Below are positions 2,633 through 51,678 of a DNA stretch of 64,000 bases, piece by piece. The number at the start of each line of letters is the position of its first letter. Position 1 is the first letter of the stretch. Origin of the DNA: Dehalococcoidia bacterium (GTDB taxonomy: Bacteria; Chloroflexota; Dehalococcoidia; UBA2979); the NCBI GenBank assembly GCA_009692765.1, contig SHYQ01000001.1:29096-93095 (forward strand), given 5' to 3'. The notes beneath the pieces were generated by a model, which was given only the letters and a program-made list of their open reading frames with translations, did no database searches and was not told where the DNA came from. The translations under genes were made by a program, and so were the position numbers.

Positions 2633-2744
2633 GGCGCGCCTCCGATGCCCGGTCCGATGCTGCTCCGCCTCAGTCTAGTCGCGGCGCGCACTGCTGCACA
2701 TACCGCGCTGCTGCCCGGACTGGCCCGCTGGATATACTGGGGGC

Positions 2745-4085
2745 ATGGCGAGCAGCATCGACGCGGGGGAGGTGCTGGCGCGCATCGAGTCGCACCGGCG
2801 ATCCGCCGCCCCCGACGCGTTCCTCGCGCTGACACTGCCCCCGGACTTCGACCCCCGCCGCCTGCTGGACGACCCGCAGGGCGCGGGCGTGGTCGCCTCC
2901 TACGAACGTCCCTCCCAGGGCATCGCCATGGTCGCCATCGGCGAGGCGGCGCGTATCGAGGCGCCGTGGGGCGCCGGCCCGGGCGCGGTGGGCGTGCAGG
3001 CGCGCGCGCTGGTCGACCGGCCGGGGGGAGGCGACCTGCCGGGGCTGCGTCCTCGGCTGCTGGGCGGTTTTCGCTTCAACGCCTCCGCCGCGCCGCATGC
3101 CCCGTGGGAGGCGTTCGGCGCGGGCTGGTTGGTGCTGCCGCGCGTGCTGTTCCTCGCCACGGGCGAATCGAACGCGCTGATCCTCGCGCCCAGCGCGGAG
3201 GCGCACGACGTCGCCGCGCTCGTCGAGCGCGCCCAGCGCGCACCCGATATCGCCTCCGCCACAGCACTCCGCGTCGAGCAGCCGATGGACCGCGGGCGGT
3301 GGCTGGCGAGCGTCGCGACGATCGCCGCCGAGGTGCGCGCGGGGCTGTACGAGAAGGCCGTGCTCGCCTCGACGCAGCAACTCGCCGGCGATGCCCCGAT
3401 CTCCGTCGGCCGCGCGCTGGCGCGGCTGCGCGAGGACTACCCAGACTGCCACCTGTTCACGATGACCAGCGGCGACGCCACGTTCCTCGGTGCAAGCCCC
3501 GAACTGCTGGTCTCGCTGACGCGAGGCCGCGTGCGCGCGCTCGGGCTCGCGGGGTCAGCGCGGCGCGGCGTCGACCCCGAGGAGGACGAGCGGCTGGGTG
3601 CGGCGCTGCTCGAGAGCGCGAAGAACCGCATCGAGCACGAGACCGTGGTCCGCGCGATCCGCGAGCGGCTGGGCGGGGCGACGGAGGAACTGCTGGCGCC
3701 GAACCAGCCGCAACTCCGCCGCCTGCATAACATCCAGCACCTCTCGACCGAGATCAGCGGCCGCGTGCGGACGGGCGTCGACGTCCTCGACCTGGTGGAG
3801 CGGCTGCACCCCACGCCCGCCGTCTGCGGCTGGCCAGCCGACCGCGCTGGCGAGGTAATCGCGCGCCACGAGGCGTTCGACCGCGGCTGGTACGCGGGGC
3901 CGGTGGGGTGGATGGACGGCGCGGGGGACGGCGAGTTCGCCGTCGGTCTCCGCTCAGCGGTGGTCCGCGGGTCACGCGCGTGGCTCTTCGCCGGCAACGG
4001 CATCATGGGCGACTCCGCCCCGCAGTCCGAGCTGGACGAAGTGCAGCTGAAGTTCCTGGCCGTCGGCGAGGCGTTGGGCGCGTAA
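2745..4085 (+). CDS. menF: isochorismate synthase (menaquinone-specific, MenF-like)
   Basis: 446-aa chorismate-binding enzyme. C-terminal ...GWYAGPVGW...EFAVGLRSAVV...LFAGNGIMGDSAPQSELDE motif is typical of isochorismate synthases. Confidence 0.8.
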   Translation: MASSIDAGEVLARIESHRRSAAPDAFLALTLPPDFDPRRLLDDPQGAGVVASYERPSQGIAMVAIGEAARIEAPWGAGPGAVGVQARALVDRPGGGDLPGLRPRLLGGFRFNASAAPHAPWEAFGAGWLVLPRVLFLATGESNALILAPSAEAHDVAALVERAQRAPDIASATALRVEQPMDRGRWLASVATIAAEVRAGLYEKAVLASTQQLAGDAPISVGRALARLREDYPDCHLFTMTSGDATFLGASPELLVSLTRGRVRALGLAGSARRGVDPEEDERLGAALLESAKNRIEHETVVRAIRERLGGATEELLAPNQPQLRRLHNIQHLSTEISGRVRTGVDVLDLVERLHPTPAVCGWPADRAGEVIARHEAFDRGWYAGPVGWMDGAGDGEFAVGLRSAVVRGSRAWLFAGNGIMGDSAPQSELDEVQLKFLAVGEALGA

Positions 4086-4122: not shown

Positions 4123-7100
4123 CTAGCCCCAGCTCTTGCCCGCGGGCATCGCCAACACCTCGGCGGGGAAGAGTTGTGTGACCGATTCCGCGATGAGCGT
4201 GCGCTGCTCGCCAGCGCGTTCCTCAAGGCGGCCCTGTACGCGCATGAAGGGTGCGGTGCGGACGATGTCGCGGTACGCCTCGACGAGATCGCGGCTGACA
4301 AGGACGTTGACCATGCCGAACTCGTCCTCGAGCAGCAGGAAGATGATGCCTTTCGCGGTGAGCGGCTGCTGGCGGCAGACGACGAGGCCGGCGAGGTCGA
4401 CGCGCGTGCCCGCGGACAGTGTGCGCAGATGCCGGCTGGCCACCATGCCCTCGCCGAGGGCCGGGCGCAGGAACTGCATGGGGTGGCTGTCCGGCGACAG
4501 CCGCAGCACGGCGTAGTCCCCGGCCATGCGCTGGTACGCGCTGAAATCGGCCAGACGCACCTGGTCCTGCTCGGTGGGCAGCGCGAGGCGCAACTGGCGA
4601 TCGCGAGGACGGCGCAGCCCCGATTGCTCCCCGCGTCGGTAGACGCTTGCTCCGGAAGCAGGGCCGCCAGCGAACAGACCGAGCTGCCAGAGTAACTCGC
4701 GGCGGTTGAGGCCCAGGACGTCGAACGCTCCGATGCGGATGAGGTTCGTGGAGGCTTCGCGCGAGAGCCCGGTGCGCTGGACGAATTCGAACAGCGATCG
4801 GTACGGTCCCGCGCGGCGGCGCTCCTCCTCGATGCGGTTCGCGCCCGCCTCGCCGACGCCGCGCACGTAGCCGAGGCCGACACGCACGGCATCGAGGTGA
4901 TCGGGGCCGCGCCGATCGGTCTGCACAGCGTCGGGCGTGATCTCCTCGACGGTGCATCGCGCATCGCTAAGGTTGATATCGGGGCGGCGGACGTCCACGC
5001 CGTGGCGCTGCGCGTCATTCGTCAGCACGTGCGGCGGGTAGAAGCCCAGCGGCTGCTCGTTGAGCAGCGCGCACAGGTACTCCGGTGGGTAGTAGTGCCT
5101 CAGCCACGTCGACTGGTACGCGAGCAGGCCGAACGCCGCACCATGTGACTTGGGGAAGCCGAACTCCGCGAAGCCGAGGAGGTTCTCGAACATCTTCGTG
5201 GCGTCGGCCTCGGAGACGTCGTCGTGTGAGAGCGCCCCGGCCATGAACTGCTGGCGGTACCGCTCCATAATCTGCGACGAGCGTTTGCGGCTCATGGCCC
5301 GGCGGAACGTCTCCGCCTCGCCGGCATTGAAGCCGCCCATGCGCTTGGCGACCTCGATCACCTGGTCCTGGAACAGCACCACGCCCAGCGTCTCCTCCAG
5401 GGCCGGGCGCACGCACTCCGGCATCGGGATCGCGTAGTCCGGGTCGCGTCGCCGCGCCTCGCGACGGCGCACGTACGGGTTTACCGCGCCGCCGACGATC
5501 GGGCCGGGGCGCACAATCGAGACCTGCACGGTGAGGTCGTCGAGGTTGCGCGGCTGCGTGCGCGGCAGCATGGCGATCTGCGCGCGCGACTCGATCTGGA
5601 AGACGCCGATGGTGTCGCCTCGACAGATCTCGTCGTAGATCACCGGGTCGTTGAAGTCGGGGCTGCGCGACAGGTCGACGACCTTGTGGCGGTGACGCTC
5701 CACAAGGTCGACGCACTCCTCAACGACGGAGAGCATGCCGAGGCCGAGGAAGTCGATCTTCACCATCCGCGCGTCGTCGATGCTGTCCTTGTCCCAGTGC
5801 GCGAGGTAGCGGTTCGGCCAGCGCGCGGGCTGGCAGGGGACGCAGTCGATCAGCGGCTCCGAGGAGATCACCATCCCGCCGACGTGCTGCGACAGATGTC
5901 GAGGGAAGCCCGCGAGCTGGTGGGCCATTTCGGAGAGGTACTGCCACGCGCGGTCCTCGACGTTCTGAGGAGTGACGTACTCGCTCCCGGATCCGGCAGT
6001 AGCGGGATCGGCGATGCCGCGCTGGCGCGCCACCTCCTCGCCCACGTGCGTCGCGCGGTCGTACGGCCTCGCCCGCTTCGCAAGGCGATCGACCTCGGTC
6101 TCCGGCAGGCCGAGGACCTTGCCGATGTCACGCACGGCGCTGCGGATGCGGTAGGTCGGGAAGATCGCGACCAGCGCGGCATGTTCTTTGCCCCACTTCA
6201 CGTAGACGCGCTCGATCAGTCGCTCGCGGATATCGCGCGGGAAGTCGAGGTCGATGTCCGGCAGCGAGCGCATGCCGTCATTGAGGAAGCGATCGACGCC
6301 GAGCCGGTTGCGGATCGGGTCGATGTGCGACAGCCCGATCAGGTAGCAGATGATCGAGGCCACGGACGAGCCGCGCCCGCGCCCTGGCGGGAGTTCCGTG
6401 ACGCTGCGCGCGCGGCTCGGCCCGCGCACCTCCGCTGCCACGACCTCCGCGAGTGTCATCACCTCGTGGTAGACGAGGAAGAACCCGGCGAGGCGGTTCA
6501 GTTCCACGAGGGCCAGTTCCCGCTCCAGCCGCTCCAGCGCCGCGTCTCGCTCGCCGAACGAGTACTTGCGATCGAGACGCCCCATGCACAGCGATCGCAG
6601 TTCCTCGATCGGCGTGCGCCTGTCATGCGTGGGCGGTGAGGGCAGCGAGTAGCCCAGATCCTCGGTCAGGTCGAACGCGCAGCGGCGTGCGATGCGCACG
6701 GAGTTCGCCGCGGCCTCCGGGTGGTACTCGGCGAAACGCCGCGCCTGCTCCTGCGGCGAGCGCAGGGCGAACTCCCCGTTCGGCCTCCGCTCGCGGTGCG
6801 ATTCGTCCAGGGTCTTGCGGTGCTTGATCGCGACGAGCACGTCCTGCAGCCGATGCCGGTCCGGCTCGTGGTAATGCACGTCGCCCGTGCCGACGACCTC
6901 GACACCGGCGCGCGCGGCGAGGTCGACAAGCGTGCGATTGCGCGGACGGTCGCCGTAGACGAGGTTGTCCTGCAGTTCGACGAAGACATTGTTGCGGCCG
7001 AACCACGCGATCCAGCGGTGCAACGCGGTCTCTGCCTCCTCGACCCGATGCTCCTGTACCAGCCGCGGCACGAGGCCATCGCGGCAACCGGTGAGCGCGA

Positions 7101-7638
7101 TCAGGCCTGCGGTATGGGCCTCAAGGAATGCGGTGGGGACGACGGGATCGAGACGGCGCGTCTCGCGATCGTGCTGCGCCGCCTCGAACAGCCCGAACGC
7201 GCGGCTGGAGAGGCGACAGAGGTTGGAGTAGCCCCGGCGGTCCTCCGCGAGCAGCGTGATGTGCGATCGCGTGCCGTCGGGCTCCTCGAGGGTGAGCTCG
7301 AGGCCGGTGATCGGTCGGAATCCCTCCTCCTTCGCGGAGCGCGCGAACTCCATCGATCCGTACATGGCGTCGTGGTCGGTCAGCGCCAGCGCGCGGTGTC
7401 CCTGCTGCCTCGCGGCGATCAGCAACTCGTCGATGCTCGACGCGCCCTCCAGCAGCGAGTAGTTCGAGTGCAGGTGCAGCTCCACGTACGGCGCATCGTC
7501 GAGGACGGACAGCGGCACCGGCTGCGCCGGATCGCGTGCAGCCATCGAGCGCGGCGTGTCGCCCTCGATGGCCGCGTCGATGGCGCGTCGCCGTGCCGCG
7601 AACGCCTCCCACGAGTACTCGGGCGCGTGCGGGCTCAT
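4123..7638 (-). CDS. dnaE2: error-prone DNA polymerase III alpha-like (DnaE2)
   Basis: 1171-aa ORF with N-terminal PHP motif (HLHSNYSLLEGAS) and Pol III alpha core. Last gene of the imuB cassette. ATGA overlap with the upstream small ORF. Confidence 0.9.
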   Translation of the reverse strand: MSPHAPEYSWEAFAARRRAIDAAIEGDTPRSMAARDPAQPVPLSVLDDAPYVELHLHSNYSLLEGASSIDELLIAARQQGHRALALTDHDAMYGSMEFARSAKEEGFRPITGLELTLEEPDGTRSHITLLAEDRRGYSNLCRLSSRAFGLFEAAQHDRETRRLDPVVPTAFLEAHTAGLIALTGCRDGLVPRLVQEHRVEEAETALHRWIAWFGRNNVFVELQDNLVYGDRPRNRTLVDLAARAGVEVVGTGDVHYHEPDRHRLQDVLVAIKHRKTLDESHRERRPNGEFALRSPQEQARRFAEYHPEAAANSVRIARRCAFDLTEDLGYSLPSPPTHDRRTPIEELRSLCMGRLDRKYSFGERDAALERLERELALVELNRLAGFFLVYHEVMTLAEVVAAEVRGPSRARSVTELPPGRGRGSSVASIICYLIGLSHIDPIRNRLGVDRFLNDGMRSLPDIDLDFPRDIRERLIERVYVKWGKEHAALVAIFPTYRIRSAVRDIGKVLGLPETEVDRLAKRARPYDRATHVGEEVARQRGIADPATAGSGSEYVTPQNVEDRAWQYLSEMAHQLAGFPRHLSQHVGGMVISSEPLIDCVPCQPARWPNRYLAHWDKDSIDDARMVKIDFLGLGMLSVVEECVDLVERHRHKVVDLSRSPDFNDPVIYDEICRGDTIGVFQIESRAQIAMLPRTQPRNLDDLTVQVSIVRPGPIVGGAVNPYVRRREARRRDPDYAIPMPECVRPALEETLGVVLFQDQVIEVAKRMGGFNAGEAETFRRAMSRKRSSQIMERYRQQFMAGALSHDDVSEADATKMFENLLGFAEFGFPKSHGAAFGLLAYQSTWLRHYYPPEYLCALLNEQPLGFYPPHVLTNDAQRHGVDVRRPDINLSDARCTVEEITPDAVQTDRRGPDHLDAVRVGLGYVRGVGEAGANRIEEERRRAGPYRSLFEFVQRTGLSREASTNLIRIGAFDVLGLNRRELLWQLGLFAGGPASGASVYRRGEQSGLRRPRDRQLRLALPTEQDQVRLADFSAYQRMAGDYAVLRLSPDSHPMQFLRPALGEGMVASRHLRTLSAGTRVDLAGLVVCRQQPLTAKGIIFLLLEDEFGMVNVLVSRDLVEAYRDIVRTAPFMRVQGRLEERAGEQRTLIAESVTQLFPAEVLAMPAGKSWG

Positions 7639-7919
7639 CGCGGGGCTCCCTCAGGGGCATTCTGAGGGGCGGAGTACGGCTGCTCGAACCACGCGCCGGT
7701 GGCGTCGTCGCGGAACAGCGTGAGCGGACGGCCGCCTTCGAGGATCACGCGGTAGTAGGTGCGCGCCTGCGAGACCTCGCGCCACCACGCCTCTGCGATG
7801 CGCCAGATCTCCTCGATCTGCTCGACGCGCGCCTCGTCACGCGCACCACGCCGATCGCGGCGCGCGATCGCCACCGGACGCGCGTCCGCATCGACGCGTA
7901 CGAGGAGGCCGCGCGGCAT
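7635..7919 (-). CDS. 94-aa ORF translationally coupled between imuB and dnaE2 (possible detached ImuB C-terminal domain or novel mutasome subunit)
   Basis: ATG at 7919. Protein-like sequence (EEIWRIAEAWWREV...YYRVILEGGRPLTLFRDDATGAWF). 4-nt overlap with the dnaE2 start. imuB is only 405 aa versus ~500-530 aa typical. Confidence 0.45.
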   Translation of the reverse strand: MPRGLLVRVDADARPVAIARRDRRGARDEARVEQIEEIWRIAEAWWREVSQARTYYRVILEGGRPLTLFRDDATGAWFEQPYSAPQNAPEGAPR

Positions 7920-7978
7920 GCCGATCGCGCGCAACGACGTGGAGGCTGCCGTGCGACGTTGCTGTGGGTGGGGCGCGC

Positions 7979-9196
7979 TCACGGGTCGTACTCCAGCAGC
8001 GCGCGGCGGCGCTCCGGCAGCCGGTGCCACGGCTCCACCTCCACAACGCGCGCAAGCGGCGACTCGCCGAAGCGCACCTTCAGATGACGCACCATCTCGT
8101 CGAGCTGCTCTCGGCGGCGCGTCTGCTCCATGAACAGGCTGTGCTGCCGCCCGCTCTCCTCGGTCAGCCCCGCGAGCTCCAGCGTGACCAGCGAGAACGG
8201 GCCTGGGAACTCCGCGTACTCGACCAGCGTGCGCAGCACCGTCCACATCCGTCCGCGATCGCCCAGCGGATCGCGCAGCACCTGCTCGCGCTCCCAGAGC
8301 GCGCCGCGCTCCGTCTCCGCGCGCAGCCGGAGCAGCCGCACGAAGCGGCGCCGCGCGCGAGGCTGCCGCAAGGCGCGCCCCAGCATCTGCTCCAGCGCGT
8401 GCAGCACGGACTCGCGGCTGACCAGCGGCGGCTCCGCCTGCACGTGCTCCTCCACGCGCTCGCGCTCCCACGGTTGCGGTCGCACCGGCCGCGGGTCCTC
8501 GCCGCGCGCGGCGAGCCATGCGACGCCACCCTCGAGGCCGAACTGCGCCTCGATGGCCGCGCGCGGCAATGCGGCGAACGCGCCACAGCGCTCGATGCCG
8601 AGCAGGTGCAGCCGCTCGACCGCATCGACCTCGAGCGGGAGCCGCGACACCAGCTCCGTCGCGAGGAACGTCGCGGCCTCGGTGAGCGGCACGTGCACCA
8701 CGGCGTTCGGCTCCGCGCGGTGCGCGGCCATCAGCGCGGTGAAGCGTGCATCCGCGACGCCGAGCTGCGGGCACAGTTGCGGCGGCACCCCGCCGAACAC
8801 CGCGCGCTTGAGGTCGCCGAGGCGCGGGTACAGCCCTTCGGTGCCGCGCAGGTCCGCGAAGACGATGCCCTGTCCCGCCTCTTCCACGAGCGGGCTGACC
8901 GCACACATCGCCTCGACGAGGTCGCGCGCGAACCGCGCCACCAGCGCCGGCCGAGGCTCCACGACCGACAGCATCGGGCACAGCCCGACCGCATCCCGCA
9001 GCGTCATCCCCACGCGGACGCCATGTATGCGCGCCTCGGGCGTCACATCCAGGACGCGGGCGTGCGCCTCGTCGCTCAGCACGGCAGGCATCCCGGCCAG
9101 CCCCGGCCGCTCCACCAGTTCGCACTGGAATGCGAGCGACGGAATCGCGAGGCAGGCAACGGACGCGGCGCGCGGACGCGGGACGGCTCTCGACAT
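7979..9196 (-). CDS. imuB: ImuB (Y-family polymerase-like, catalytically inactive mutasome subunit)
   Basis: N-terminus ASVACLAIPSLAFQCELVERP, typical of ImuB/UmuC-fold proteins. Internal ATG at 9196 preceded by a GGGGGGAA SD. Positioned directly upstream of dnaE2. Confidence 0.8.
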   Translation of the reverse strand: MSRAVPRPRAASVACLAIPSLAFQCELVERPGLAGMPAVLSDEAHARVLDVTPEARIHGVRVGMTLRDAVGLCPMLSVVEPRPALVARFARDLVEAMCAVSPLVEEAGQGIVFADLRGTEGLYPRLGDLKRAVFGGVPPQLCPQLGVADARFTALMAAHRAEPNAVVHVPLTEAATFLATELVSRLPLEVDAVERLHLLGIERCGAFAALPRAAIEAQFGLEGGVAWLAARGEDPRPVRPQPWERERVEEHVQAEPPLVSRESVLHALEQMLGRALRQPRARRRFVRLLRLRAETERGALWEREQVLRDPLGDRGRMWTVLRTLVEYAEFPGPFSLVTLELAGLTEESGRQHSLFMEQTRRREQLDEMVRHLKVRFGESPLARVVEVEPWHRLPERRRALLEYDP

Positions 9197-9231
9197 GGTT
9201 CCCCCCGCCAGAAGGCAGGGGCAGTGTACAA

Positions 9232-9243
9232 GAACTGGTGTTC
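9232..9243. promoter_or_regulatory. Cheo-type LexA (SOS) box GAAC-N4-GTTC (aAGAACtggtGTTCTaa), ~36 nt upstream of the imuB start
   Basis: Seen directly as a palindrome with AGAAC/GTTCT arms and a 4-nt spacer. Matches the Gram-positive/actinobacterial LexA operator consensus (CGAAC-N4-GTTCG). It is the only such motif in this intergenic region. Confidence 0.5.
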
Positions 9244-9293
9244 TAATACGAGGGATAGGTTTGGCGGGGCGCTCGGCGGGTAACTGCGTGCGG

Positions 9294-10148
9294 TCAGTCC
9301 GCCGGAGCGAACCCCTCGTCGCCTTCGCGCAGCTGCCGGCTCGGACCAAGCACCCGCTGGATCGTCGCGCGGGCGGTCGCATACTGCCGGAGGCCCCACC
9401 CGTCCTCTCGCGCCATGCGCAGCGTCGCCGGTCGCGTGCCAGCGGCGAAGGTCCGGGATCGCGGCTGCATGTACTGCGATACGTACTCCGCAGCCTCTAG
9501 GCCGGCGATCGTGTGGGCGAAGGTTTCGACGTCATCCATCGGCAGCATTGGGCTCACCGCGACGCCGATGGGGACGCCGGCCTCACGAAGCGCACGCAAC
9601 GCCCGCAGTCGCACGCCGATCGCGGGCGCGCTCGCCTGCGGTACGAGGCGAGCGCGTTCTGAGTCCGTGGTCACCGAGACGTTGACGCGGATGTGATCGA
9701 ACTGCTGAAGCAGATCGATGTCACGCGTCACGATCGGGCTGCGGGTCTGGATAGTCAGCCGCGGCTGGACCCCGGCGGCAAGGATCGCCAGCAGGACCGA
9801 GCGTGTCAGCCCCAGCCGGTGCTCGGCTGGTTGGTAGGGATCCGTCGCACTGGACATGTACACCGTATCACCGGATCGGAGCGTGCCATCCTGGCAGGCC
9901 TTCGTGATCAGCGTGGCGGCATTCTGCTTGGCCGAGGCCCAGTCCCCCCAGGTGTCCCGCTTCGCCGGTGTCGGCGCGAACGAGCGCGCGTAGCAGTACT
10001 CGCACGCGAATCGACATCCCGAGTACGGGTTGAGCGTGTACTGGTAACGGCGGATGAAGCCGGAAGCGAGCGTCAGGATGGAGCGCTCGTCCACGAGCGC
10101 AATCCCGGCGCGCTTCCCTCTCCCCAGACCGCCGTCGAGGTCGCTCAT
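9294..10148 (-). CDS. radical SAM protein, SplB-like (spore-photoproduct-lyase / DNA repair photolyase family, COG1533)
   Basis: Iron-sulfur motif ...NPYSGCRFACEYCYARS... The nearest canonical radical-SAM pattern is C-x3-C-x2-C (CEYCYARSFAPTP), which fits the SplB-like family. Sits immediately upstream of the SOS box and imuB. Confidence 0.75.
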   Translation of the reverse strand: MSDLDGGLGRGKRAGIALVDERSILTLASGFIRRYQYTLNPYSGCRFACEYCYARSFAPTPAKRDTWGDWASAKQNAATLITKACQDGTLRSGDTVYMSSATDPYQPAEHRLGLTRSVLLAILAAGVQPRLTIQTRSPIVTRDIDLLQQFDHIRVNVSVTTDSERARLVPQASAPAIGVRLRALRALREAGVPIGVAVSPMLPMDDVETFAHTIAGLEAAEYVSQYMQPRSRTFAAGTRPATLRMAREDGWGLRQYATARATIQRVLGPSRQLREGDEGFAPAD

Positions 10149-10350
10149 GGCTGAAGGGTATGGGGTATCAGCAACCTGGCAAGCACCAGATGGCACTCAC
10201 GCAGCCGGCGCCAGCCACCCGTTCGCAACGCGCCCGTTCTTGTCTGGAGCCATTCCGACGCAGCCGGCTGCCTCGCAATCACAGCGTTGCCGGTTCGAGC
10301 GGCGTGGCAGGATCGCGACGCCACGACGGACGCGGGATAAGATGTAGCGA

Positions 10351-12162
10351 ATGGCCCTGCCCGCCGATCGCACCGTGCACGCGCTGTTGCAGTCGCTCTC
10401 CCGGAACGGGGTGCGGCACTTCGTGGTCGCCCCGGGCTCCCGCAACACGCCGATCACCATCGCCGCGACCGCGCCCGGGTCGCCGTTCCGCGTCTGGCTG
10501 CACCTGGACGAGCGCTCCGCGGGCTACTTCGCGCTCGGCATCGCGCGGCAGACCGGCGAGCCGGTGGCCGTCTGCTGTACCTCCGGTACCGCCGTCGCGA
10601 ACCTGCTGCCCGCCGCCGTCGAGGCGCGGCTGTCGCGCGTCCCGCTCATCCTCCTGACAGCCGACCGCCCGCCCGAGGCGCGCGACATCGGCGCGTCACA
10701 GACCATCGACCAGGTGGGGATCTTCTCGACGCACGTGAAGTGGGCGGCGGACCTGCCGGCAGCCGATGCGGGCGCGATCGACGACCTGGAGCGCTACGCC
10801 GCCGCGGCTGGCGCACGCGCCGCGGCAATCGCGTGCGAGGCCCCCGCCGGGCCGGTGCACCTGAACGTCCCCCTGCGGGAGCCGCTGGTCGACATTGACT
10901 CAGAAGAACTGCCGTTCGACCTCGGCGCGCCCGAGGTGCGGCGCGCGGTGGCCGCACCCTCCGTCCCGGCGCCCGCCGAGGTGGCGCGCGTCGTGAGCGC
11001 GGTCAGCGGTCGCCGGGGCGTGATCGTCTGCGGACCGGAGTCGGCCGGGCTGCCGGCCTCCGCCATCACCTCGCTCGCCGCGATCCTCGGCTGGCCGATC
11101 GTCGCAGACCCGCTGTCCGGGCTGCGCGCCGGGCGTCACCCGCTCGACGCCGTCATCGACCGCGCCGACGTGCTCGCCCGCGAGCCCGCGTTCACCGACC
11201 CCGCGACCCCCGAGGTGACGATCCGCTTCGGCGCGGCGCCGACCTCGAAGCCGCTCAACCAGTGGCTCACGACACTCGGTGATGCGCGGGGCAGAGGGGG
11301 CGCGACCCAGATCGTCGTCGACATGGCCGTCGCCGCGGGCGGCGGGTGGCGCGATCCGGACCTGCGCGCCGTGCTCGGCGTCGCCGCCGACCCCGGCGCG
11401 TTCTGCTCCACGCTCCTCGAAGCGCTCGACGCGCGGTCCGGCGCGCGCGCGGAGTGGCTTCCGCTGTGGCGCGATGCCAACGCCGCCGCGCGCACCGCGC
11501 TCGACGAGGCGATCGCGGACATCCGCGAGCCGTTCGAGGGCCAGGCCGTCGTCGACCTCGCAGGCGCGCTGTCTGAGGGCTCCACGCTCGTTGCCGGGAA
11601 CTCGATGCCCGTGCGCGATATCGACTCCTTCTTCCCGAACATGGACCGCGCGGTGCGGATCGTCGGCACGCGCGGCGCGAGCGGTATCGATGGCGTGACC
11701 TCGTCCGCGGTGGGCGCGGCGGCTGCGGCGTCGGTGGGGGCGGGGGGGGCGGTGGCGCTGCTGATCGGCGACCTGTCGTTCCTGCACGACATCAACGGCC
11801 TGTGGCCGGTACGTCGCCACGACCTGAGCCTCACCGTGGTGCTGGTGAACAATGACGGCGGCGGCATCTTCTCCTTCCTGCCGCAGCGCACGAGCATGCC
11901 CGCGCGCTTCGAGGAGTGGTGGGGCACGCCGCACGGCCTCGACCTGCGCCACGCCGTGGCGTTGCACGGCGGCCGCCACGCGCTGATGGACCATGGCCCG
12001 ACGAGCGGGGCGAGCGCGGCGATCGGCGACGCGCTCCAACGGCCGGGCCTCAACGTGCTGGAGCTGCGCACCGATCGCGACCGCAACGTGGCGCTGCACC
12101 AGCAGGTCTGGGCGCGCGCCACCGAGGCGGTGCGCCACGCCGTGGTCGCGGCGCGGGCATAG
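10351..12162 (+). CDS. menD: 2-succinyl-5-enolpyruvyl-6-hydroxy-3-cyclohexene-1-carboxylate synthase
   Basis: 603-aa ThDP enzyme. N-terminus HFVVAPGSRNTPITIA...CCTSGTAVANLLPA is diagnostic of MenD. Confidence 0.9.
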   Translation: MALPADRTVHALLQSLSRNGVRHFVVAPGSRNTPITIAATAPGSPFRVWLHLDERSAGYFALGIARQTGEPVAVCCTSGTAVANLLPAAVEARLSRVPLILLTADRPPEARDIGASQTIDQVGIFSTHVKWAADLPAADAGAIDDLERYAAAAGARAAAIACEAPAGPVHLNVPLREPLVDIDSEELPFDLGAPEVRRAVAAPSVPAPAEVARVVSAVSGRRGVIVCGPESAGLPASAITSLAAILGWPIVADPLSGLRAGRHPLDAVIDRADVLAREPAFTDPATPEVTIRFGAAPTSKPLNQWLTTLGDARGRGGATQIVVDMAVAAGGGWRDPDLRAVLGVAADPGAFCSTLLEALDARSGARAEWLPLWRDANAAARTALDEAIADIREPFEGQAVVDLAGALSEGSTLVAGNSMPVRDIDSFFPNMDRAVRIVGTRGASGIDGVTSSAVGAAAAASVGAGGAVALLIGDLSFLHDINGLWPVRRHDLSLTVVLVNNDGGGIFSFLPQRTSMPARFEEWWGTPHGLDLRHAVALHGGRHALMDHGPTSGASAAIGDALQRPGLNVLELRTDRDRNVALHQQVWARATEAVRHAVVAARA

Positions 12163-12175
12163 GCCGGCTCGCGCC

Positions 12176-13018
12176 GTGCCCGACGCGATTGCGCGCGATA
12201 TCGAGATCGACGGTCTGAGCCTCCACGTCGAACGCGCCGGGAGCGGGCCCCCCGTCGTGCTGCTGCACGGCTTCACCGGCTCCGGCGCATCGTGGGCTCC
12301 GCTCCTCGAGGTGCTCGCGCCTGACTTCACGACGCTGGCCGTCGACCTCGTGGGCCACGGCCGGTCGGGGCATCCGGCGGCGAACGATCGCTACCGGATG
12401 CGCCGCGCCGTGGACGACCTGGCCGCGCTGCTCCACGCGCTGGGGCACGAGCGCGCCGCGTGGCTCGGCTACTCGCTCGGTGGGCGCACGGCGCTCCAGG
12501 TCGCCGTGCATCGCCCGGAGGTCGTCTCCGCGCTGATCCTCGAGGGCGCGACGCCCGGCTACGCGACGCCCGAGGAGCGCGCCGCGCGGGTCGCCGCCGA
12601 CGAGGCGCTGGCGCTGCGCCTAGAACGCGAGGGGCTGGAGGCGTTTGTCGACTACTGGCAGGCGATCCCGCTGTGGGACAGCCAGCGGCACACGCTGACC
12701 GACGAGCAGCGCGCGGCGCTGCGCCGGGGCCGCCTCGCGCAGCACCCGGCCGGCCTCGCGGGCTCGCTGCGGGGGATGGGCACGGGGGCGCAGGACTGGG
12801 TGGGCGACCGCCTGGGCAAGGTGCGCGTGCCTGTGCTGCTGACGGCAGGTACGCTGGACACTAGGTTCAGCGCTATCGCCCGCGAGATGGCGGCGGTGAT
12901 CCCGGACAGCGCCGTGCGGCTGATCGACAATGCCGGACACGCCGCCCACCTCGAGCGGCCGGCGGCCTTCAACACGCTGGTGCGCGATTTTCTGATCGGC
13001 GTGCGCGGACGGCTGTAG
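12176..13018 (+). CDS. menH: 2-succinyl-6-hydroxy-2,4-cyclohexadiene-1-carboxylate synthase (alpha/beta hydrolase)
   Basis: GTG start after the menD stop. HGFTGSG...GYSLGGR alpha/beta-hydrolase nucleophile elbow. Position between menD and menB. Confidence 0.75.
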
Positions 13019-13020
13019 GA

Positions 13021-13878
13021 GTGCGGCAGGTGGGGACTGAAGGGCTCATGAGCGACATTCGCTGGCAGCCGGTACGGACGTACACCGACATCCTCTACGA
13101 CAAGGCGGGGGGGATCGCGAAGATCACGATCAACCGCCCCGAGGTGCACAACGCCTTCCGTCCGCTGACGATCGATGAACTCAGCGCGGCGTTCGTGGAC
13201 GCCGCGCAGGACGACGCGATCGGCGTGGTGCTGTTCACCGGCGCGGGCGGGCGCGCCTTCTGCTCCGGCGGCGACCAGCGCATCCGCGGCCACGCCGGGT
13301 ACGTGGACACCGAGGGGGCAGCGCGCCTGAACGTGCTCCCGCTGCAGCGCTTCATCCGCGAGATGCCGAAGCCGGTGATCGCCCTGGTCGCCGGGTACGC
13401 CATTGGCGGCGGGCACGTGCTGCACGTGATCTGCGACCTGACGATCGCCGCGGAGAACGCGCGCTTCGGGCAGACCGGCCCGCGGGTCGGATCGTTCGAT
13501 GCGGGGTACGGCGTGTCGATGCTGGCGCGGCTCGTCGGCACCAAGAAGGCGCGCGAGATCTGGTACCTCTGTCGCCAGTACGGCGCGCAGGAGGCGCTGG
13601 CGATGGGGCTGGTCAACGCCGTCGTCCCGCTCGACGATCTGGAGGCGGAGGGCGTGCGCTGGGCGAATGAGATCCTCGCGAAGTCGCCGACCGCGATCCG
13701 CTTCCTGAAGAACGCCTTCCTCGCCGACACCGACGGCGCGACCGGCCTGCAGGTGCTCGCCGGCGACCTCACGATGCTGTACTACACGACCGACGAAGCG
13801 AAGGAGGGACGCAACGCTTTCGTCGAGAAGCGCCAGCCTGACTTCACGAAGTTCGCGCGGCTGCCGTTCCATGGCTGA
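13021..13878 (+). CDS. menB: 1,4-dihydroxy-2-naphthoyl-CoA synthase
   Basis: Crotonase-fold protein with FCSGGDQ...[19 protein letters not shown]...GSFDAGYG motifs. Confidence 0.9.
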
Positions 13879-14785
13879 TTCGCCGCCGCCCGGTCCGCTG
13901 GCTGCGCCGGGCCGCCTGCGCGTGTGGGCGATGGCGATCCGCCCGGCCACGCTGACCGCAGCGGTAGTGCCGGTGGCGGTGGGCACCGGAGTCGCCGTGC
14001 ACGACGGCGTGCGCGCCCCCCTCGCGGCGCTCGCGGCGCTGATTGGGGCGCTTGCGTTGCAGGCCGGCGCGAACCTCGCGAACGACCTCTCGGACTTCCG
14101 CCGCGGCGCGGACACCGCGGCGCGCCTCGGCCCGATGCGCGTCACCCAGCACGGACTGCTCAGCGAGCGCCAGGTGACGATCGGCGTCGTCGTCTGCTTC
14201 GCGCTCGCAACGGTCGTCGGGCTGTACCTCACCACCCTCGGCGGCTGGCCGATCGTCGTGATCGGCGTCGCTGCGATGCTCGCGGCGGTGACGTACACCG
14301 GCGGGCCGTGGCCCTTCGGCTACCGCGGCCTCGGCGAGCTCTTCGTGTTCATCTTCTTCGGCGTGGTCGCTGTCGCGGGCACCTACTACGTGCAGGCGGG
14401 GGGCGTGACCGCCGGTGTCTTCGCTGCGTCGCTCCCGGTGTCGCTGACCGTCACGGCGATTCTCGTCGTGAACAACGTGCGCGACATCGATACCGATCGG
14501 CTGGCGGGGAAGTACACGCTGGCCGTCTACCTTGGCCGCCGCCTGGCGCGGACGGAACTCGTGGTCGTCGTCGGGGGGGCGTACGTGGCGGCGGCGGCGC
14601 TCTGGCTGCTGGGCGACTTCTCCGGCTGGGTGCTGCTGTCGTGGCTGTCGGTGCCGGCCGCCGTCGTCCCGGTGGCGGTGGTGCTGCGTCGCACGGACGG
14701 TCCGCCGCTGAACGCGGCGCTGCGGGCGATGGCACGGCTGCACCTGATCTTCGGGCTGCTGCTGGCGATCGGGCTCTCCACCTGA
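13871..14785 (+). CDS. menA: 1,4-dihydroxy-2-naphthoate polyprenyltransferase
   Basis: 304-aa polytopic UbiA-fold membrane protein with [11 protein letters not shown] and [10 protein letters not shown] Asp-rich motifs. 8-nt overlap with menB. Confidence 0.85.
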
Positions 14786-14838
14786 CGCCCCCGCGAGGGG
14801 ACGCCGCGCGTATCCGCTGGCGCGCGTTCCGGCTGCCG

Positions 14839-15960
14839 ATGCGCCATCGGTTCGAGGCGGCGCACGGCGCGATTGCGGATCGCCGGGGCGTGCTCATCGA
14901 GATCGCGGACGGCGAGGGCTACGTGGGCGTCGGCGAGGCTTCCCCGATCCCCTCACTCGGCTACGGCACCGTCGAGGACGTGCTCGTGCTGCTCCAGCGC
15001 TACGGTGCGGCGCTGCCGGCAACGCTCGATCTGCTCCATGCGCTCGACCCGCGTGCACCCGGCGTGCTGGCGCTGCGCTGCGCAGTCGACGTGGCCGCGC
15101 TGGACCTCGAAGGGCGACGCGCGGGGCGGTCGGTGGCTTCGCTGCTCTCGACGGCCGCGACGAACGTTGCGTCCGCGGTGCGCGTCAACGCCGTGATCGG
15201 CGAGGGTGCCCCCGAGGAGACCGCGCGCTACGGCCGCGGGGCGGCCGCGCAGGGCTACGCCGTGCTGAAGGCGAAGGTCGGCAGCGCCGCGCTCGCGGAG
15301 GATGTGCGGCGCATCGCCGCGCTGCGCGAAGCTTGCCCCGGCGTCGCGATCCGCCTCGACGCGAACGGCGCGTGGGACGAGGCGACGGCGGTCGCCGCCC
15401 TCCGTGCGTTCGCCCCCCACGGCATTGAGCTGATCGAGCAGCCCGTCGCCGCAGGGGAGGTCGAGGCGCTGGCGCGGGTGCGTGCCGCCGCGCACGCGCT
15501 CGGTGCCGCGACGGGGGGCGGACCGCTGATCGCCGCCGACGAAGCAGTCGCCGACCAGGACACCCTCGCGCGCGTCTTCGAGCAGCGCGCCGCCGACCTC
15601 GTGGTGCTGAAGCCGATGTTCCTCGGCGGGCTGCGGCCCGCCGTCGCGATCGCGCAGCGCGCCGCCGCCTGCGGCATGGGCGCGTTCGCGACGACGACGT
15701 TCGACTCCTCGATCGGGACGGCGGCGGCGCTGCACCTGGCTTGCGCGATGGATGGGGCCGGCGAGATCGCGCACGGGCTGGGCACCGGCGAGCACCTGAC
15801 GGCCGACCTCGTGGTGCACACGCTGGTCGCGCGGGATGGCATGCTCTCGCTACCGTCGGGCGCCGGACTGGGCGTCGCACCGGAGGAGGCGGCATGGCAT
15901 CGTGTGGCCGAGGGCGACTGGATCACTGCGCCGTACGCGCACCCGCCGTGGCGGCCGTAG
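14839..15960 (+). CDS. menC: o-succinylbenzoate synthase (enolase superfamily)
   Basis: FRLPMRHRFEAAHG...VLKAKVG...IRLDANGAWD...IEQP motifs. The start could be a non-ATG codon slightly upstream, around 14812. Confidence 0.75.
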   Translation: MRHRFEAAHGAIADRRGVLIEIADGEGYVGVGEASPIPSLGYGTVEDVLVLLQRYGAALPATLDLLHALDPRAPGVLALRCAVDVAALDLEGRRAGRSVASLLSTAATNVASAVRVNAVIGEGAPEETARYGRGAAAQGYAVLKAKVGSAALAEDVRRIAALREACPGVAIRLDANGAWDEATAVAALRAFAPHGIELIEQPVAAGEVEALARVRAAAHALGAATGGGPLIAADEAVADQDTLARVFEQRAADLVVLKPMFLGGLRPAVAIAQRAAACGMGAFATTTFDSSIGTAAALHLACAMDGAGEIAHGLGTGEHLTADLVVHTLVARDGMLSLPSGAGLGVAPEEAAWHRVAEGDWITAPYAHPPWRP

Positions 15961-15989
15961 CGCGCCCGCAGCCGCCCGTGGAGGGACCG

Positions 15990-17534
15990 ATGACCCTGAC
16001 GCCCGCGACCACCGGCACGCCGCTGCTCTCCGTCGAGCTCTGCGACTGGGTCGCCCGGCGCGCCTCGACGCACGCCGAGGTGATCGCCGTCGAGTGCGGC
16101 GACGAGCGCCTGACGTATCGCGCACTCGACGCGCGCGTAGGCGCGGCGGCGGCGCGTCTCGTCGCGCTCGGTGTCCGCGCGGGCGAACCGGTGGGGCTGT
16201 TGCACGCGAACGACAACGGCTTCGCCCTCTTCGTGCACGCGATCACCCGGGCCGGTGCGCTCTGCGCGCCCTTCAACGCGCGGCTGACGGTGAGCGAGAT
16301 CGCATGGCAACTGCGCGATGCCGGCGCGCGCTACCTCATCGCAGATGCGGCCAACGCCGAGCACGCGGCGCTCGCCCGCGCGGCGGCCGAGGAGGCCGGT
16401 GTCACGCTGCTCGCGGCGGGGGACGCTGCGTGGCGCGGTGCTCCGCCGGGCGCTGGCGTACCGATCGCCGAGCCGGAGGCGGTTCCCTTTGATCGCCCCC
16501 ACAGCCTGCTCTACACCTCGGGCACCACGGGGCGGCCGAAGGGGGTGGTGCTGACGCACGGCAACTTCTACTGGAGCGCCGTCGCGTCCGCGGAGCACCT
16601 CGGCGTCGCGTCCGACGACCGCTGGCTCGCCTGCCTGCCGCTGTACCACGTCGGCGGGCTGTCGATCCTGCTGCGCAGCGCGATCTACGGCACGACCGCC
16701 GTCATCCACGAGCGCTTCGATGAGGCGCGGGCCGTGCGCGCGCTGCGCGAGGAGCGCGTGACGCTGCTGTCCGTGGTCGCGAACATGCTCCAGCGGATGC
16801 TAGCGCTCGACGGCGAGGCGTACCCCTCGACGGTGCGCGCCGTGCTGCTGGGCGGCGGCCCCGCGCCGCGCCCGCTGCTGGAGGCCTCGGCGGCGCGCGG
16901 GCTGCCCGTGCTGCAGACGTACGGGCTGACCGAGACGGCGTCGCAGGTTGCCACGCTCTCCCCGGCGGACGCGCTCCGCAAACTGGGGTCGGCGGGGCTG
17001 CCGCTGCCCGGCACCACCGTGCGCATCGAGATCGAGGGCGTCGAGGCCGCGACCAGCGAGGTCGGCGAGATCATGGTGGCCGGGCCGACCGTGTGCGCGG
17101 GCTACCTGCACCGATCCGACGAGACGGCGCGGGCGATCCGCGGCGGCTGGCTGCACACCGGCGACCTCGGCTACCTCGACGCCGAGGGCTACCTGTACAT
17201 CGCCGACCGGCGCGACGACCTGATCATCTCCGGCGGCGAGAACGTCTACCCCGCGGAGGTGGAGTCCGCGCTGCTCGCGTTCCCCGGCATCGAGGAGTGC
17301 GCCGTCGTCGGCCTCCCCGACGAGCGCTGGGGGGCGCTGGTGGTCGCGGTGATCGTGCCGAGCGGCGCCGGCGCCTCGGGTATCGAGGTCGCCGCCGTGG
17401 AGGCGCACCTCCGCGCGCGCCTCGCGGGGTACAAGGTGCCGCGGCGCGTCGAGGTCACCGCGGAGCCGCTCCCACGCACCGCCTCCGGCAAGGTCCAGCG
17501 CCACCTCGTGCGCGAGCGGCTCCTCCCAGCGTAG
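15990..17534 (+). CDS. menE: o-succinylbenzoate--CoA ligase
   Basis: ATG at 15990 after a GAGGGA SD. Adenylate-forming motifs YTSGTTGRPKG, YGLTE, GWLHTGDLGYLD, GKVQR. Confidence 0.85.
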   Translation: MTLTPATTGTPLLSVELCDWVARRASTHAEVIAVECGDERLTYRALDARVGAAAARLVALGVRAGEPVGLLHANDNGFALFVHAITRAGALCAPFNARLTVSEIAWQLRDAGARYLIADAANAEHAALARAAAEEAGVTLLAAGDAAWRGAPPGAGVPIAEPEAVPFDRPHSLLYTSGTTGRPKGVVLTHGNFYWSAVASAEHLGVASDDRWLACLPLYHVGGLSILLRSAIYGTTAVIHERFDEARAVRALREERVTLLSVVANMLQRMLALDGEAYPSTVRAVLLGGGPAPRPLLEASAARGLPVLQTYGLTETASQVATLSPADALRKLGSAGLPLPGTTVRIEIEGVEAATSEVGEIMVAGPTVCAGYLHRSDETARAIRGGWLHTGDLGYLDAEGYLYIADRRDDLIISGGENVYPAEVESALLAFPGIEECAVVGLPDERWGALVVAVIVPSGAGASGIEVAAVEAHLRARLAGYKVPRRVEVTAEPLPRTASGKVQRHLVRERLLPA

Positions 17535-19847: not shown

Positions 19848-20585
19848 TTACGCGTTCGTGTCCGCCGCGGGCGCCCCGCCACTCGGCGCCCCGCGACGCT
19901 TCGCCTGCAACTGCTCCATCACGCGCTCCAACGTCTCGTACTCCTGAGCACCGACTACGGCGTACTGCTCGTCGAGGATGAACGTCGGGATCGCCTGCAC
20001 GCCGACCGCGTAGGACTGCTCGATGCCCTCGTTCACCGTCTGCAGGTGGGCGCCGCTGACCAGCGCCGCGCGCAGTGCCGCGCCGTCCAGTCCGACCGCG
20101 TCGGCGTGCCGCACCAGCACGTCCGCATCCATCAGGTTCTCGAAGTCGGTGAAGTACGCCTTGAACAGCGCGCGGTGGTAGTCCATCACCTGCCGGACGG
20201 TCCCGTGCTGGCGCGCGAACTCACCGGCCTGCAGCGCGAGGAGCGTGTGCGGCGTGAACGTCCTGCCGCGGCGGAATTCGAGGCCCAGCCGCTTGCCCCG
20301 CGCCTCCACGGGCGTCTCGGGGCTATCGGGCGCCTGCGGCTGGCGCGGCCGTCCCTCGGGCGGGATCGAGGGGTCGAGGAAGAACGGAGCCCAGTCGAGC
20401 TCGATGTCCCAGTGTTCGTAGAGCCGTTCGACCTCCACGAGGCCGATGTAGCACCACGGTCAGATGAAGTCCGAGACGATCGTAAGCCGCAACGGGCCCG
20501 TGCGTTCTTCGTCGGTGCGGGCGTGGGCGTGGGCGTGGGCGTCGGTCACATCAGTCTCCAGCCGTGCGGACGGTCCGCGGGTCAT
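19848..20585 (-). CDS. DsbA/FrnE-like thiol:disulfide oxidoreductase with in-frame TGA (candidate selenocysteine) in a U-P-W-C active-site motif
   Basis: Two same-frame track ORFs (20460..20789 and 19848..20438) are separated by a single stop. Minus-strand reading: ...TIVSDFI-TGA-PWCYIGLVEVERLYEHW... TGA occupies 20460-20462, exactly where DsbA/FrnE proteins have the first Cys of CPWC. A hairpin (GGCCUC-GUG-GAGGUC, extendable to 8 bp) lies ~14 nt downstream. Start uncertain (ATG 20585 or TTG 20492). Confidence 0.5.
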
Positions 20586-47655: not shown

Positions 47656-48829
47656 CGACGACCTCGTCGTGCAGTTCGGTGAACGCGGTACGCACCGCGT
47701 CCGACGGCGGCTCGCCGTGTTCGCGCTCGTGGTACTCGCCGTAGAGTTCGTCCCACGTCCGGCCGGCGCGGCTCGCGGCACGCGCGGTCGGCCGCGGGTA
47801 CTCCGCGCGCACCCGCACGAGGCGGTCGAAGGTCTCGGTCGCGCGCGCCGCGAGCGCCGGGTCCGGCCCCGTGGTCGTCACCACCAGGTCGAGGTACGCG
47901 CCCGCGAACTCGTCGCGCCGAGCGAGCAGCTCGTCCCACGTCCCCTGCGCGCGCACGAGCGGGAAGCGTCGCGGTGTGTCGAGCGCAATCGACCTGACCG
48001 TGGCAGAGACGCGCGGCGTCGCCTCGATGAGCACGACGCGCTTCTGCTCATCGGCCTCGCCGAAGTCGAGGGGGAGCAGCGAGCCCGCGTACTCCGCGGG
48101 GCCCGGCGCACCCGGCACACGCTGCGGCGCGTGGATGTGGCCCATCGCGATGTACTGCGGGCCGGGCGGCAGCCCCGCGGCGTCGATCGTGTACGTCTCG
48201 CCCATGTGCAGCTCGCGCTCGCCGCGCCCGTATTGTTGGCCGTGCACCACAGCGCCGTTCACCGTGGCGTGGGCCACGAGGACCGTCACCGCCTCGGCGG
48301 CCTCGCGGTCGAGCGCCTCGCCCATCGCGCGGAAGATGCCGCTCAAGCGGTCCTTGTACTCGCCGTACCACTGGCCGGACTCGAGCATGAAGTCCACCAC
48401 GCGCCCCTCGCGCAGGAAGGGGACGCACGCGAGCGCCGCACGCCCGCCGGGCGTGTCGAGGATCAGCAGGCCGCCCCCCTCGCCGCCGCTGCCGGGGCGC
48501 CTGATGTGCCCGACGAGGTGCACCCCCATGGGCTGCACCAGCGGCGCGAGCACCTCGAACAGGTCGCCCGAGTCATGGTTGCCGGCGATCGCGACGACCG
48601 GGCGTCGCCCGCCATCGGCAAGGCGGATCAGCGCCTCGAGGCCGTCGCCGAGCGCGTCGGTGGGCGGCGTCGCGCGGTCCCACAGGTCGCCGGAGACGAC
48701 GACGAGGTCGACCGCGTGCGCCTCCGCGATCCGCTGCACTTCGCGCAGCGCCTCGCGGAACTCCGCGGCGCGGTCGTAGCGTCCGATGTGCTTGCCGATG
48801 TGCCAGTCGGAGGTGTGCAGGATGCGCAT
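47642..48829 (-). CDS. sbcD: SbcD/Mre11-like nuclease
   Basis: MRILHTSDWHIG...DLVVVSGDLWD calcineurin-like phosphoesterase motifs. Overlaps the sbcC start by 14 nt. Confidence 0.85.
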   Translation of the reverse strand: MRILHTSDWHIGKHIGRYDRAAEFREALREVQRIAEAHAVDLVVVSGDLWDRATPPTDALGDGLEALIRLADGGRRPVVAIAGNHDSGDLFEVLAPLVQPMGVHLVGHIRRPGSGGEGGGLLILDTPGGRAALACVPFLREGRVVDFMLESGQWYGEYKDRLSGIFRAMGEALDREAAEAVTVLVAHATVNGAVVHGQQYGRGERELHMGETYTIDAAGLPPGPQYIAMGHIHAPQRVPGAPGPAEYAGSLLPLDFGEADEQKRVVLIEATPRVSATVRSIALDTPRRFPLVRAQGTWDELLARRDEFAGAYLDLVVTTTGPDPALAARATETFDRLVRVRAEYPRPTARAASRAGRTWDELYGEYHEREHGEPPSDAVRTAFTELHDEVVDATA

Positions 48830-48852
48830 CGTGGTGCCTCGTGGTCTTCTGC

Positions 48853-51656: not shown

Positions 51657-51678
51657 TCTAGCGGGTCGCGCGCTAGAA
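51656..51678. promoter_or_regulatory. inverted repeat TTCTAGCG-N7-CGCTAGAA overlapping the nurA translation start region (candidate operator)
   Basis: Seen directly: cattctagcgggtcgcgcgctagaacg has 8-9-bp perfect arms. At the 5' end of the nurA-herA-sbcDC operon. Confidence 0.4.

Follow-up and report, generated by a model that had tools for sequence, protein, structure and literature searches.

A FrnE/DsbA-like gene with a conserved in-frame TGA in Dehalococcoidia: a probable selenoprotein hidden behind a truncated gene call

The window analysed here is a stretch of 64,000 nucleotides (nt) from a Dehalococcoidia bacterium (contig SHYQ01000001.1, assembly GCA_009692765.1). Its minus strand carries a gene for a thioredoxin-fold oxidoreductase of the FrnE/DsbA type that is interrupted by one TGA codon and that very probably encodes a selenoprotein (features in Table 1). 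Read directly from either candidate start, 20585 or 20549, down to 19848, the frame contains exactly one internal stop, the TGA at 20462..20460, in the context L-T-I-V-S-D-F-I-[TGA]-P-W-C-Y-I-G-L-V-E-V-E-R-L. When the stop was replaced by cysteine (Cys) for the search, the Pfam domain PF01323 (DSBA) was found to span it (E 3.5e-28; 99.1 bits, the cut-off being 25.6; positions 2-189 of the 191 in the profile). An earlier interpretation of the same DNA, the sequence-only reading, had described two same-frame open reading frames (ORFs) split by a single TGA at the first Cys of a C-P-W-C motif, and both the direct reading and the domain match across the stop bear this description out. The remaining Cys of the motif, Cys33, is the sole Cys in the protein.

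The extent of the gene needed a smaller correction. The sequence-only reading had let it run from 20585; the frame is as described, but the start was moved to the GTG at 20549, which is favoured over the ATG at 20585 because of the orthologue N-termini (MTN.../VTN...) and the GGAG at 20559..20556. The N-terminus is hydrophilic, with a maximal 19-residue Kyte-Doolittle mean of 1.52, and neither a signal peptide nor a transmembrane segment was found in the window protein by inspection of the N-terminal sequence and the Kyte-Doolittle profile. On this basis the protein is presumably cytoplasmic, like FrnE. The N-terminal tail also contains a tandem hexanucleotide repeat (20517-20540, minus strand; GCCCAC three times followed by a degenerate GCCCGC) that encodes A-H-A-H-A-H-A-R. 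The repeat is missing from the closest TGA-containing orthologues (L001, L002) and was probably inserted by slippage, the tail being disordered.

Among solved structures, the closest is FrnE of Deinococcus radiodurans (DR_0659; PDB 5CNW, 5CO3 and 5XWH), which matches residues 19-222 of the window protein (5CNW, E 3.9e-23) at about 29% identity. In the matches to 5CNW and 5CP1 (E about 3e-23), the TGA falls on the first Cys of the FrnE CPWC, so that FrnE has Cys precisely where the window has TGA; the comparison with FrnE/DsbA homologues thus places the codon where the sequence-only reading had put it. The two proteins share the active-site context SD-x-x-CPWCY-IG, and FrnE too is cytoplasmic and without a signal peptide. 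The fold of the window protein was modelled by proxy, through the AlphaFold model of P0004, a Cys-containing orthologue that is 78% identical (mean predicted local distance difference test score, pLDDT, 86.8). In this model, strand beta1 comprises residues 14-19 and the CPWC motif (residues 24-27) lies at the N-terminus of a helix spanning residues 25-40. Its best PDB fold matches, obtained with Foldseek, are FrnE and SCO1869, FrnE being the closest solved structure by fold too (E 7e-12 to 5e-11; template modelling score about 0.7 for P0004). The Pro of the I-P-T tripeptide further along the window protein aligns to the Pro of the 'VPFF' loop of FrnE, the counterpart of its cis-proline; this is a sequence alignment, and the cis conformation is only predicted. 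FrnE carries a Cys-containing motif in its C-terminal tail, to which the C239S mutant entry 5CP1 points, whereas the tail Cys has no counterpart in the window protein, whose only Cys is C33. A second candidate family was rejected: NCBIfam NF041057 (Rcas_1661 family thioredoxin-like (seleno)lipoprotein), a Chloroflexi-named family of thioredoxin-like selenoproteins, gave a weak local match to the C-terminal half (46.3 bits against a cut-off of 190; profile positions 140-246 only), and its members are lipoproteins while the window protein is not.

In public databases the gene is represented by a truncated product. The entry P0001 (196 amino acids (aa), MEVERLYEHW...) is the product of a gene call starting at the GTG at 20438, as the sequence-only reading had predicted of standard gene callers, and it lacks the active site. 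P0001 is present on two contigs of the European Nucleotide Archive (ENA) analysis ERZ1305449, the source sample. The lengths of its homologues are bimodal, with one group of about 215-250 aa that contains SDFICPWCY and another of about 185-198 aa that starts just past the motif. The start chosen by the callers (20436-20438, minus strand) coincides with the apical loop, G25-U26-G27, of the hairpin described below. In 22 of 56 orthologues this loop reads GUU, GUC, GUA or GGU instead of GUG, and the callers take other downstream starts there.

The truncated calls raise the question of whether the TGA is a true stop, the gene being a pseudogene or a gene in two pieces with a functional 196-aa product that starts at GTG 20438 and lacks the redox motif. 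Automatic callers yield exactly this model, for P0001 as for dozens of entries of 185-198 aa, and TGA does end other genes in the window. The sequence upstream of the TGA, however, behaves as coding sequence. Twenty codons upstream of the TGA are open in the 56 unique TGA forms, the open stretch being 20-30 codons, and most of them have an M-T-x start 17-20 codons upstream. At codons -9 to -1 of these forms, a coding periodicity is seen, with position 2 invariant and position 3 free to the extent of 0.85-1.3 bits at codons -8, -6 and -5. Because of the open frame, the conserved start and this periodicity, the upstream segment is concluded to be translated in frame with the downstream part, and translation beginning only downstream of the TGA, which the sequence-only reading had named as a result that would speak against it, was not borne out. 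Further, the motif SDF[IV]-TGA-PWCY is invariant among TGA forms, a truncated product would miss strand beta1 and the N-terminus of helix alpha1 as seen in the P0004 model, and the supposed GTG start, being the hairpin loop, is not a start codon at all in the 22 forms mentioned above. A genuine stop is therefore highly improbable.

The codon state was compared among relatives by taking the DNA of 96 related loci from reference metagenome-assembled genomes (MAGs), JGI metagenomes and assemblies, which gave 90 homologous sites on metagenome and MAG contigs, chiefly from Chloroflexota/Dehalococcoidia. At this codon 68 of the 90 have TGA, 14 TGC and eight TGT, which makes 22 with Cys; two more truncated homologues outside the main set are also TGA forms. 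One of the two metagenome search patterns demanded CPWCY, so that the sampling was biased against TGA forms. The orthologues thus form the pairing of selenocysteine (Sec) and Cys at the TGA codon that the sequence-only reading had anticipated. In a neighbour-joining tree the TGA forms span the clade, and the Cys forms are nested within it in at least eight places by Fitch parsimony.

The same comparison bears on the possibility of a sequencing or assembly error, with TGC or TGT as the true codon. A single base separates TGA from either, and the sequence-only reading had mentioned indel errors elsewhere in the assembly, while judging a point substitution less likely. Many independent metagenomes and MAGs yield the TGA, in 58 distinct sequences that include the close relatives L001, L002 and L013 (79-84% identity), and this recurrence argues that it is not an assembly error. 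In addition, the truncated protein is recorded on both of the source-sample contigs, and the TGA state correlates with the state of the hairpin. The probability of an error is practically negligible.

The RNA downstream of the TGA was examined as a candidate selenocysteine insertion sequence (SECIS). With the U of UGA numbered +1, the hairpin reads UCGGCCUC-GUG-GAGGUCGA; 13 nt separate it from the UGA, so that it starts at the 14th nt, and its loop is spaced 21 nt from the UGA. Folding of the 51-nt segment that begins at the UGA gives -22.0 kcal/mol (z = -3.64), a stability that none of 200 shuffled sequences reached. The eight-pair stem is complete in 52 of the 56 unique TGA forms and in none of 20 Cys forms; paired cells make up 99.1% of alignment A2, and G25-U26 is present in the loop of 54 of the 56 TGA forms. 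The 8-bp hairpin with G and U in its loop about 14 nt 3' of the UGA, as proposed in the sequence-only reading, is thus confirmed, and it is kept specifically in TGA forms.

The strongest RNA evidence is comparative, namely the freezing of synonymous sites in TGA forms only. At the third codon positions that lie in the stem (+18, +21, +24, +30 and +33), the mean variability is 0.11 bits in TGA forms versus 1.18 bits in Cys forms, each of these sites being conserved at 95-100% in Sec forms. Other third positions are equally free in both (1.24 bits in TGA forms versus 1.08 in Cys forms), and the third position in the loop, +27, is free (1.43 bits). The peptide after the motif shows the same imprint, with an invariant G-L-V-E-V-E in Sec forms versus a variable GL[ETDMAKR]E[IVL].. 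in Cys forms, and the 19-nt element is nearly invariant across proteins that are only about 45% identical. Because the Cys forms are nested in at least eight places, the association between hairpin and TGA is replicated over independent switches and does not reflect a single inheritance.

The geometry agrees with what is known of bacterial SECIS elements. The window hairpin fits a published rule that calls for a stem of 6-8 bp and a conserved G in the loop some 20 nt past the UGA (PMC4605307). It also lies within the limits given for bacterial SECIS (bSECIS) elements, namely an apical loop of 3-9 nt, a stem of 4-16 bp, a G among the first two nucleotides of the loop, a distance of 16-37 nt to the UGA and a minimum free energy of -7.5 kcal/mol or lower (PMC13188914); its loop is GUG, its stem 8 bp, its spacing 21 nt and its energy about -11 kcal/mol, and 58 of 58 TGA forms pass. 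The loop also matches the pattern N1-G-[G|U]-N-N2 as C-G-U-G-G (PMC13188914). With the E. coli fdhF-type SECIS and the bSECIS consensus (PMC13188914) it shares the position of the stem-loop, directly 3' of the UGA and within the coding sequence, as well as an upper stem of 8 bp, a small loop starting G-U and the spacing and energy given above. It differs from the consensus in that the 19-nt element is almost invariant in sequence, and SelB binding is putative here. The fdhF SECIS has a bulged U, which the main form of the window hairpin lacks.

Two TGA forms with other downstream peptides depart from the main form. One (L092; JBBDUS010000108.1, ~3955-4000; GLEEIRP) has a stem of 5+3 bp with a bulged U, a GGAGA loop and a spacing of 23 nt, and the other (L093; Ga0172380_10024724, ~330-370; GLDVIER) has a 6-bp stem, a CGUGA loop and likewise 23 nt. 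Despite the different peptides, both have G within the first two loop positions, and they look like different ways of building a SECIS in a single family.

A distinct question is whether the UGA could be read through independently of a SECIS, by a near-cognate tRNA (Trp, Cys or Arg) helped by the hairpin, or through a reassignment of UGA across the lineage. Downstream structures can indeed stimulate read-through, and this lineage makes little use of TGA as a stop, with four of 25 well-supported genes in the window ending in it. However, TGA ends 6-15 of 20 genes in relatives and terminates genes in every locus examined, including the DsbA gene itself in L008 and L001, and the TGA of the window gene is the only in-frame TGA in the 64 kb with coding signal, judged from GC content at third codon positions (GC3), on both sides. 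Since TGA still terminates genes and no second such in-frame TGA exists in the window, the recoding would be local and context-dependent. Trp or Arg at the position of the catalytic Cys would, moreover, inactivate the motif, and the spacing and the G-U loop match SelB-type elements. Read-through of this kind has a very low probability. As a separate observation on stop codons, usage in the window is dominated by TAG despite a GC content of 71% (TAG 17, TAA 4, TGA 4). The close Cys form L094 (TAG 14, TGA 6) and L010 (TAG 11, TGA 8, TAA 1) are similar, while L008 is of the usual TGA-rich type (15 of 20). The TAG-rich usage seems to be a trait of the lineage, independent of whether Sec or Cys is used.

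Several results weigh against reading the hairpin as a SECIS and the gene as a selenoprotein gene. The bSECIS criteria are unspecific in coding sequence of 65-72% GC, where 18 of 20 Cys forms and 40 of 58 shuffled sequences pass as well; the stricter G[G|U] rule is still passed by eight of the 20 Cys forms and 24 of the 58 shuffles. Covariation is minimal, with one compensatory change from C-G to U-A (L002), four one-sided changes from U-A to U-G and four of the eight pairs invariant, and it is nearly absent because the stem hardly varies. When the best hairpin is sought without fixing the register, its energy is -12.3 +/- 1.3 kcal/mol in Sec forms and -9.3 +/- 2.5 kcal/mol in Cys forms, a modest gap. 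The contrast obtained in the main register, -11.3 versus -3.9 kcal/mol, was set aside, as it overstates the difference. The region folds readily anyway because the Leu codon CUC and the Glu codon GAG are reverse complements, and Cys-type relatives of Sec hydrogenases show the same folding tendency (PMC13582414). The Cys form L004 (CAIXBH010000235.1, ~nt 874-890, TGC) folds well, into a perfect 6-bp hairpin, GCUCGA-GGAGA-UCGAGC. Its stem is like that of L093 and its loop like that of L092. It may be a recent conversion from Sec to Cys whose SECIS is still to decay, or the hairpin may stem from the self-complementarity that CUC and GAG bring to this peptide's coding sequence. No Rfam SECIS model matched, either over the whole window at the gathering threshold or in 20350-20500 at E<=10, where the sole match was a chance snoRNA (E 8.3). 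Finally, searches of the 64-kb window and of some 300 kb from related loci found no selA, selB, selD or tRNA-Sec. ARAGORN detected no tRNA-Sec in the window and 60 related loci, and Pfam detected no SelA, SelB or SelD in 20 large ORFs outside the already annotated stretch of the window. The sequence-only reading had noted the lack of sel genes in the window, and Pfam, ARAGORN and Rfam agree. The TGA forms are set apart by their uniformity, 53 of 58 having exactly the 21-nt spacing with a GUN loop, and by their frozen synonymous sites.

Support for the insertion machinery comes from the literature on the class. Dehalococcoidia MAGs carry 46-49 selenoproteins, which ranks them with the bacteria richest in such proteins (PMC13326102), and Sec-type hydrogenases occur in Chloroflexota (PMC13582414). 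The source genome is predicted to carry SelA, SelB, SelD and SelC (tRNASec). A closer rival keeps the SECIS/SelB-type route but has it deliver Cys, so that the protein would be an ordinary CPWC enzyme. The agent would be tRNA-ReC, or SelC*, whose decoding of UGA as Cys is attributed to Vargas-Rodriguez et al. 2018 as cited in PMC13582414; tRNA-ReC is reported there to decode UGA as Cys when a SECIS lies downstream, and to be present in ~13-17% of the genomes examined. Sequence data alone do not separate the insertion of Sec from that of Cys. Nevertheless, tRNA-ReC is uncommon, Dehalococcoidia are known for large genuine selenoproteomes (PMC13326102), and keeping UGA with a frozen SECIS in at least 58 lineages merely for Cys would bring no evident gain over TGC, which was reached at least eight times. 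This rival is very unlikely, though the least improbable of those considered.

The conserved in-frame TGA, the Sec/Cys pairing, the coding selection upstream, the RNA constraint specific to TGA forms and the DsbA/FrnE fold and alignment support the candidate selenoprotein proposed in the sequence-only reading. The locus is thus very probably the gene of a cytoplasmic, FrnE-type member of the DsbA family with the motif U30-P-W-C33, made by SECIS/SelB-directed insertion of Sec. In such a mechanism, the UGA at 20462..20460 would be recoded co-translationally, with the mRNA hairpin at +17..+35 acting as a bacterial SECIS. The hairpin would bind SelB-GTP-Sec-tRNASec and bring it to the A site of the ribosome, where it would compete with RF2 for the UGA. 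With selenium inserted, the enzyme would cycle between a selenol/thiol form and a selenenylsulfide (Se-S) with Cys33 and, by analogy with FrnE and its CPWC, would reduce or isomerise disulfides in the cytoplasm, its presumed substrates.

Neither the mechanism nor the family is new; the selenoprotein family to which the window gene belongs is already known, as is the use of Sec in its phylum. A 'DsbA-like protein' family of selenoproteins (COG2761, PF01323, UxxC) was described from nine Sargasso Sea sequences by Zhang, Fomenko and Gladyshev in 2005 (PMC1088965), and Anaeromyxobacter, Desulfovibrio and Desulfotomaculum were later added to its hosts (PMC1794560). In a survey that covered over 5,200 sequenced organisms, the DsbA-like selenoprotein is tabulated with counts of 41 and 45 (PMC5029168), and a 2026 review lists a 'DsbA-like protein form 1' that also occurs in Asgard archaea (PMC13188914). 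The statement that DsbA-like selenoproteins have been reported in bacteria therefore stands, the family having been catalogued since 2005. With form 1 the window gene shares PF01323/COG2761, Sec at the first position of UxxC (here putative), widespread Cys homologues and a downstream SECIS with G in a small loop. Published members were set beside the window gene by description, and the clade studied here is distinguished as mainly Chloroflexota/Dehalococcoidia with a majority of Sec forms (68/90).

The locus matters mainly as the correction of a truncated gene call. Together with dozens of orthologues in NCBI, ENA and JGI, it is carried as a 'DsbA family protein' of 185-198 aa without active site, where the correct product would be about 215-235 aa with U-P-W-C. 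Such calls affect how many selenoproteins are counted in Chloroflexota/Dehalococcoidia, whose large selenoproteomes have been noted before. Further, the clade offers a clean natural experiment, with at least eight switches between Sec and Cys and the SECIS decaying each time. It could be used to study how an RNA element constrains its own protein, G-L-V-E-V-E being frozen only in Sec forms, and one useful outcome is a well-replicated example of a SECIS constraining its own coding sequence. A bolder proposal is that Sec is ancestral as well as the majority state in this FrnE clade of Chloroflexota and was lost to Cys at least eight times, that the near-invariant 19-nt SECIS, which fixes G-L-V-E-V-E, is recognised in a sequence-specific manner by a lineage-specific SelB, and that the enzyme is possibly tied to the adjacent menaquinone genes. 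We consider this combination unlikely. If the menaquinone tie were true, the selenoenzyme might, for instance, act on or be reoxidised by a naphthoquinone, by analogy with the fold relatives HCCA isomerase and kappa-GST; this part is weakened by the loss of synteny in more distant family members.

Table 1. Coordinates of the features in the 64-kb window
Feature	Position	Strand	Remarks
FrnE/DsbA-like gene, probable selenoprotein, corrected model	19848..20549	-	233 residues; GTG start; Sec (U) proposed at residue 30; Cys33
Stop codon TAA of the DsbA gene	19850..19848	-	
I-P-T, predicted cis-proline loop of the thioredoxin fold	19983..19991	-	Residues 187-189; Pro and Thr invariant in family alignments A1 and A3
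SECIS-like hairpin	20428..20446	-	8-bp stem, +17..+24 with +28..+35; loop G25-U26-G27 at 20438..20436
Extended lower stem	20417..20458	-	Predicted for the window sequence only; not conserved in orthologues, whose structures vary
TGC, resolving Cys33 of U-P-W-C	20451..20453	-	Invariant in family alignments A1 and A3
In-frame TGA, proposed Sec codon	20460..20462	-	At the position of the N-terminal nucleophilic Cys of CxxC
Preferred start GTG	20549..20547	-	Basis: orthologue N-termini MTN.../VTN... and Shine-Dalgarno
GGAG Shine-Dalgarno	20556..20559	-	6 nt upstream of the GTG start; read directly, function inferred
Alternative, less likely start ATG	20585..20583	-	U would then be residue 42
Menaquinone cluster (menF, menD, menH, menB, menA, menC, menE) with MaoC-like and PHP/FAS1-DH genes	2679-4085 and 9848-17400		Basis: Pfam

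The neighbourhood was assigned at the level of Pfam. The DsbA gene is divergent from an RNase D gene and is followed by two MaoC-like dehydratase genes, a PHP/FAS1-DH gene and then menE, menC, menA, menB, menH and menD, with menF further on. The same arrangement occurs in the Cys form L094 (73% identity) and in the Sec forms L008 and L010 (57-59%). Overall, relatives at 57-84% identity share the men synteny irrespective of whether they are Sec or Cys forms, and those at 49-51% (L095, L096) have lost it. Because it is common to Sec and Cys relatives and lost in distant ones, it is a subclade-level synteny independent of Sec status. The placement next to a menaquinone operon, which the sequence-only reading had found suggestive, is thus correct as a description of the neighbourhood, but a functional link is not supported beyond the subclade, and the synteny is a weak pointer to a quinone-related function.

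The region upstream of the start shows a further pattern. In 37 of 72 loci, a TATACT-like hexamer (TAYAY) lies within 25 nt upstream of the start, mostly starting 12-13 nt upstream, in Sec and Cys forms alike (e.g. L010, L015, L022, L039, L056 and L089). This spacing is what would suit a -10 box from which a leaderless mRNA is transcribed. In the window, L001, L007 and L018, a GGAG-type Shine-Dalgarno is present in place of the hexamer.

Two other parts of the window were noted in passing. Long ORFs with high GC3 occupy both strands of 47444-51734 (855, 350 and 686 codons), and none of them had a Pfam match at E<=1e-5. On the minus strand at 4123-9496, a gene for a DnaE2-like error-prone polymerase (PHP + DNA_pol3_alpha + finger + HHH_6; 1175 codons) adjoins an ImuB-like gene of the IMS family, and the pair looks like a typical imuB-dnaE2 mutagenesis cassette.

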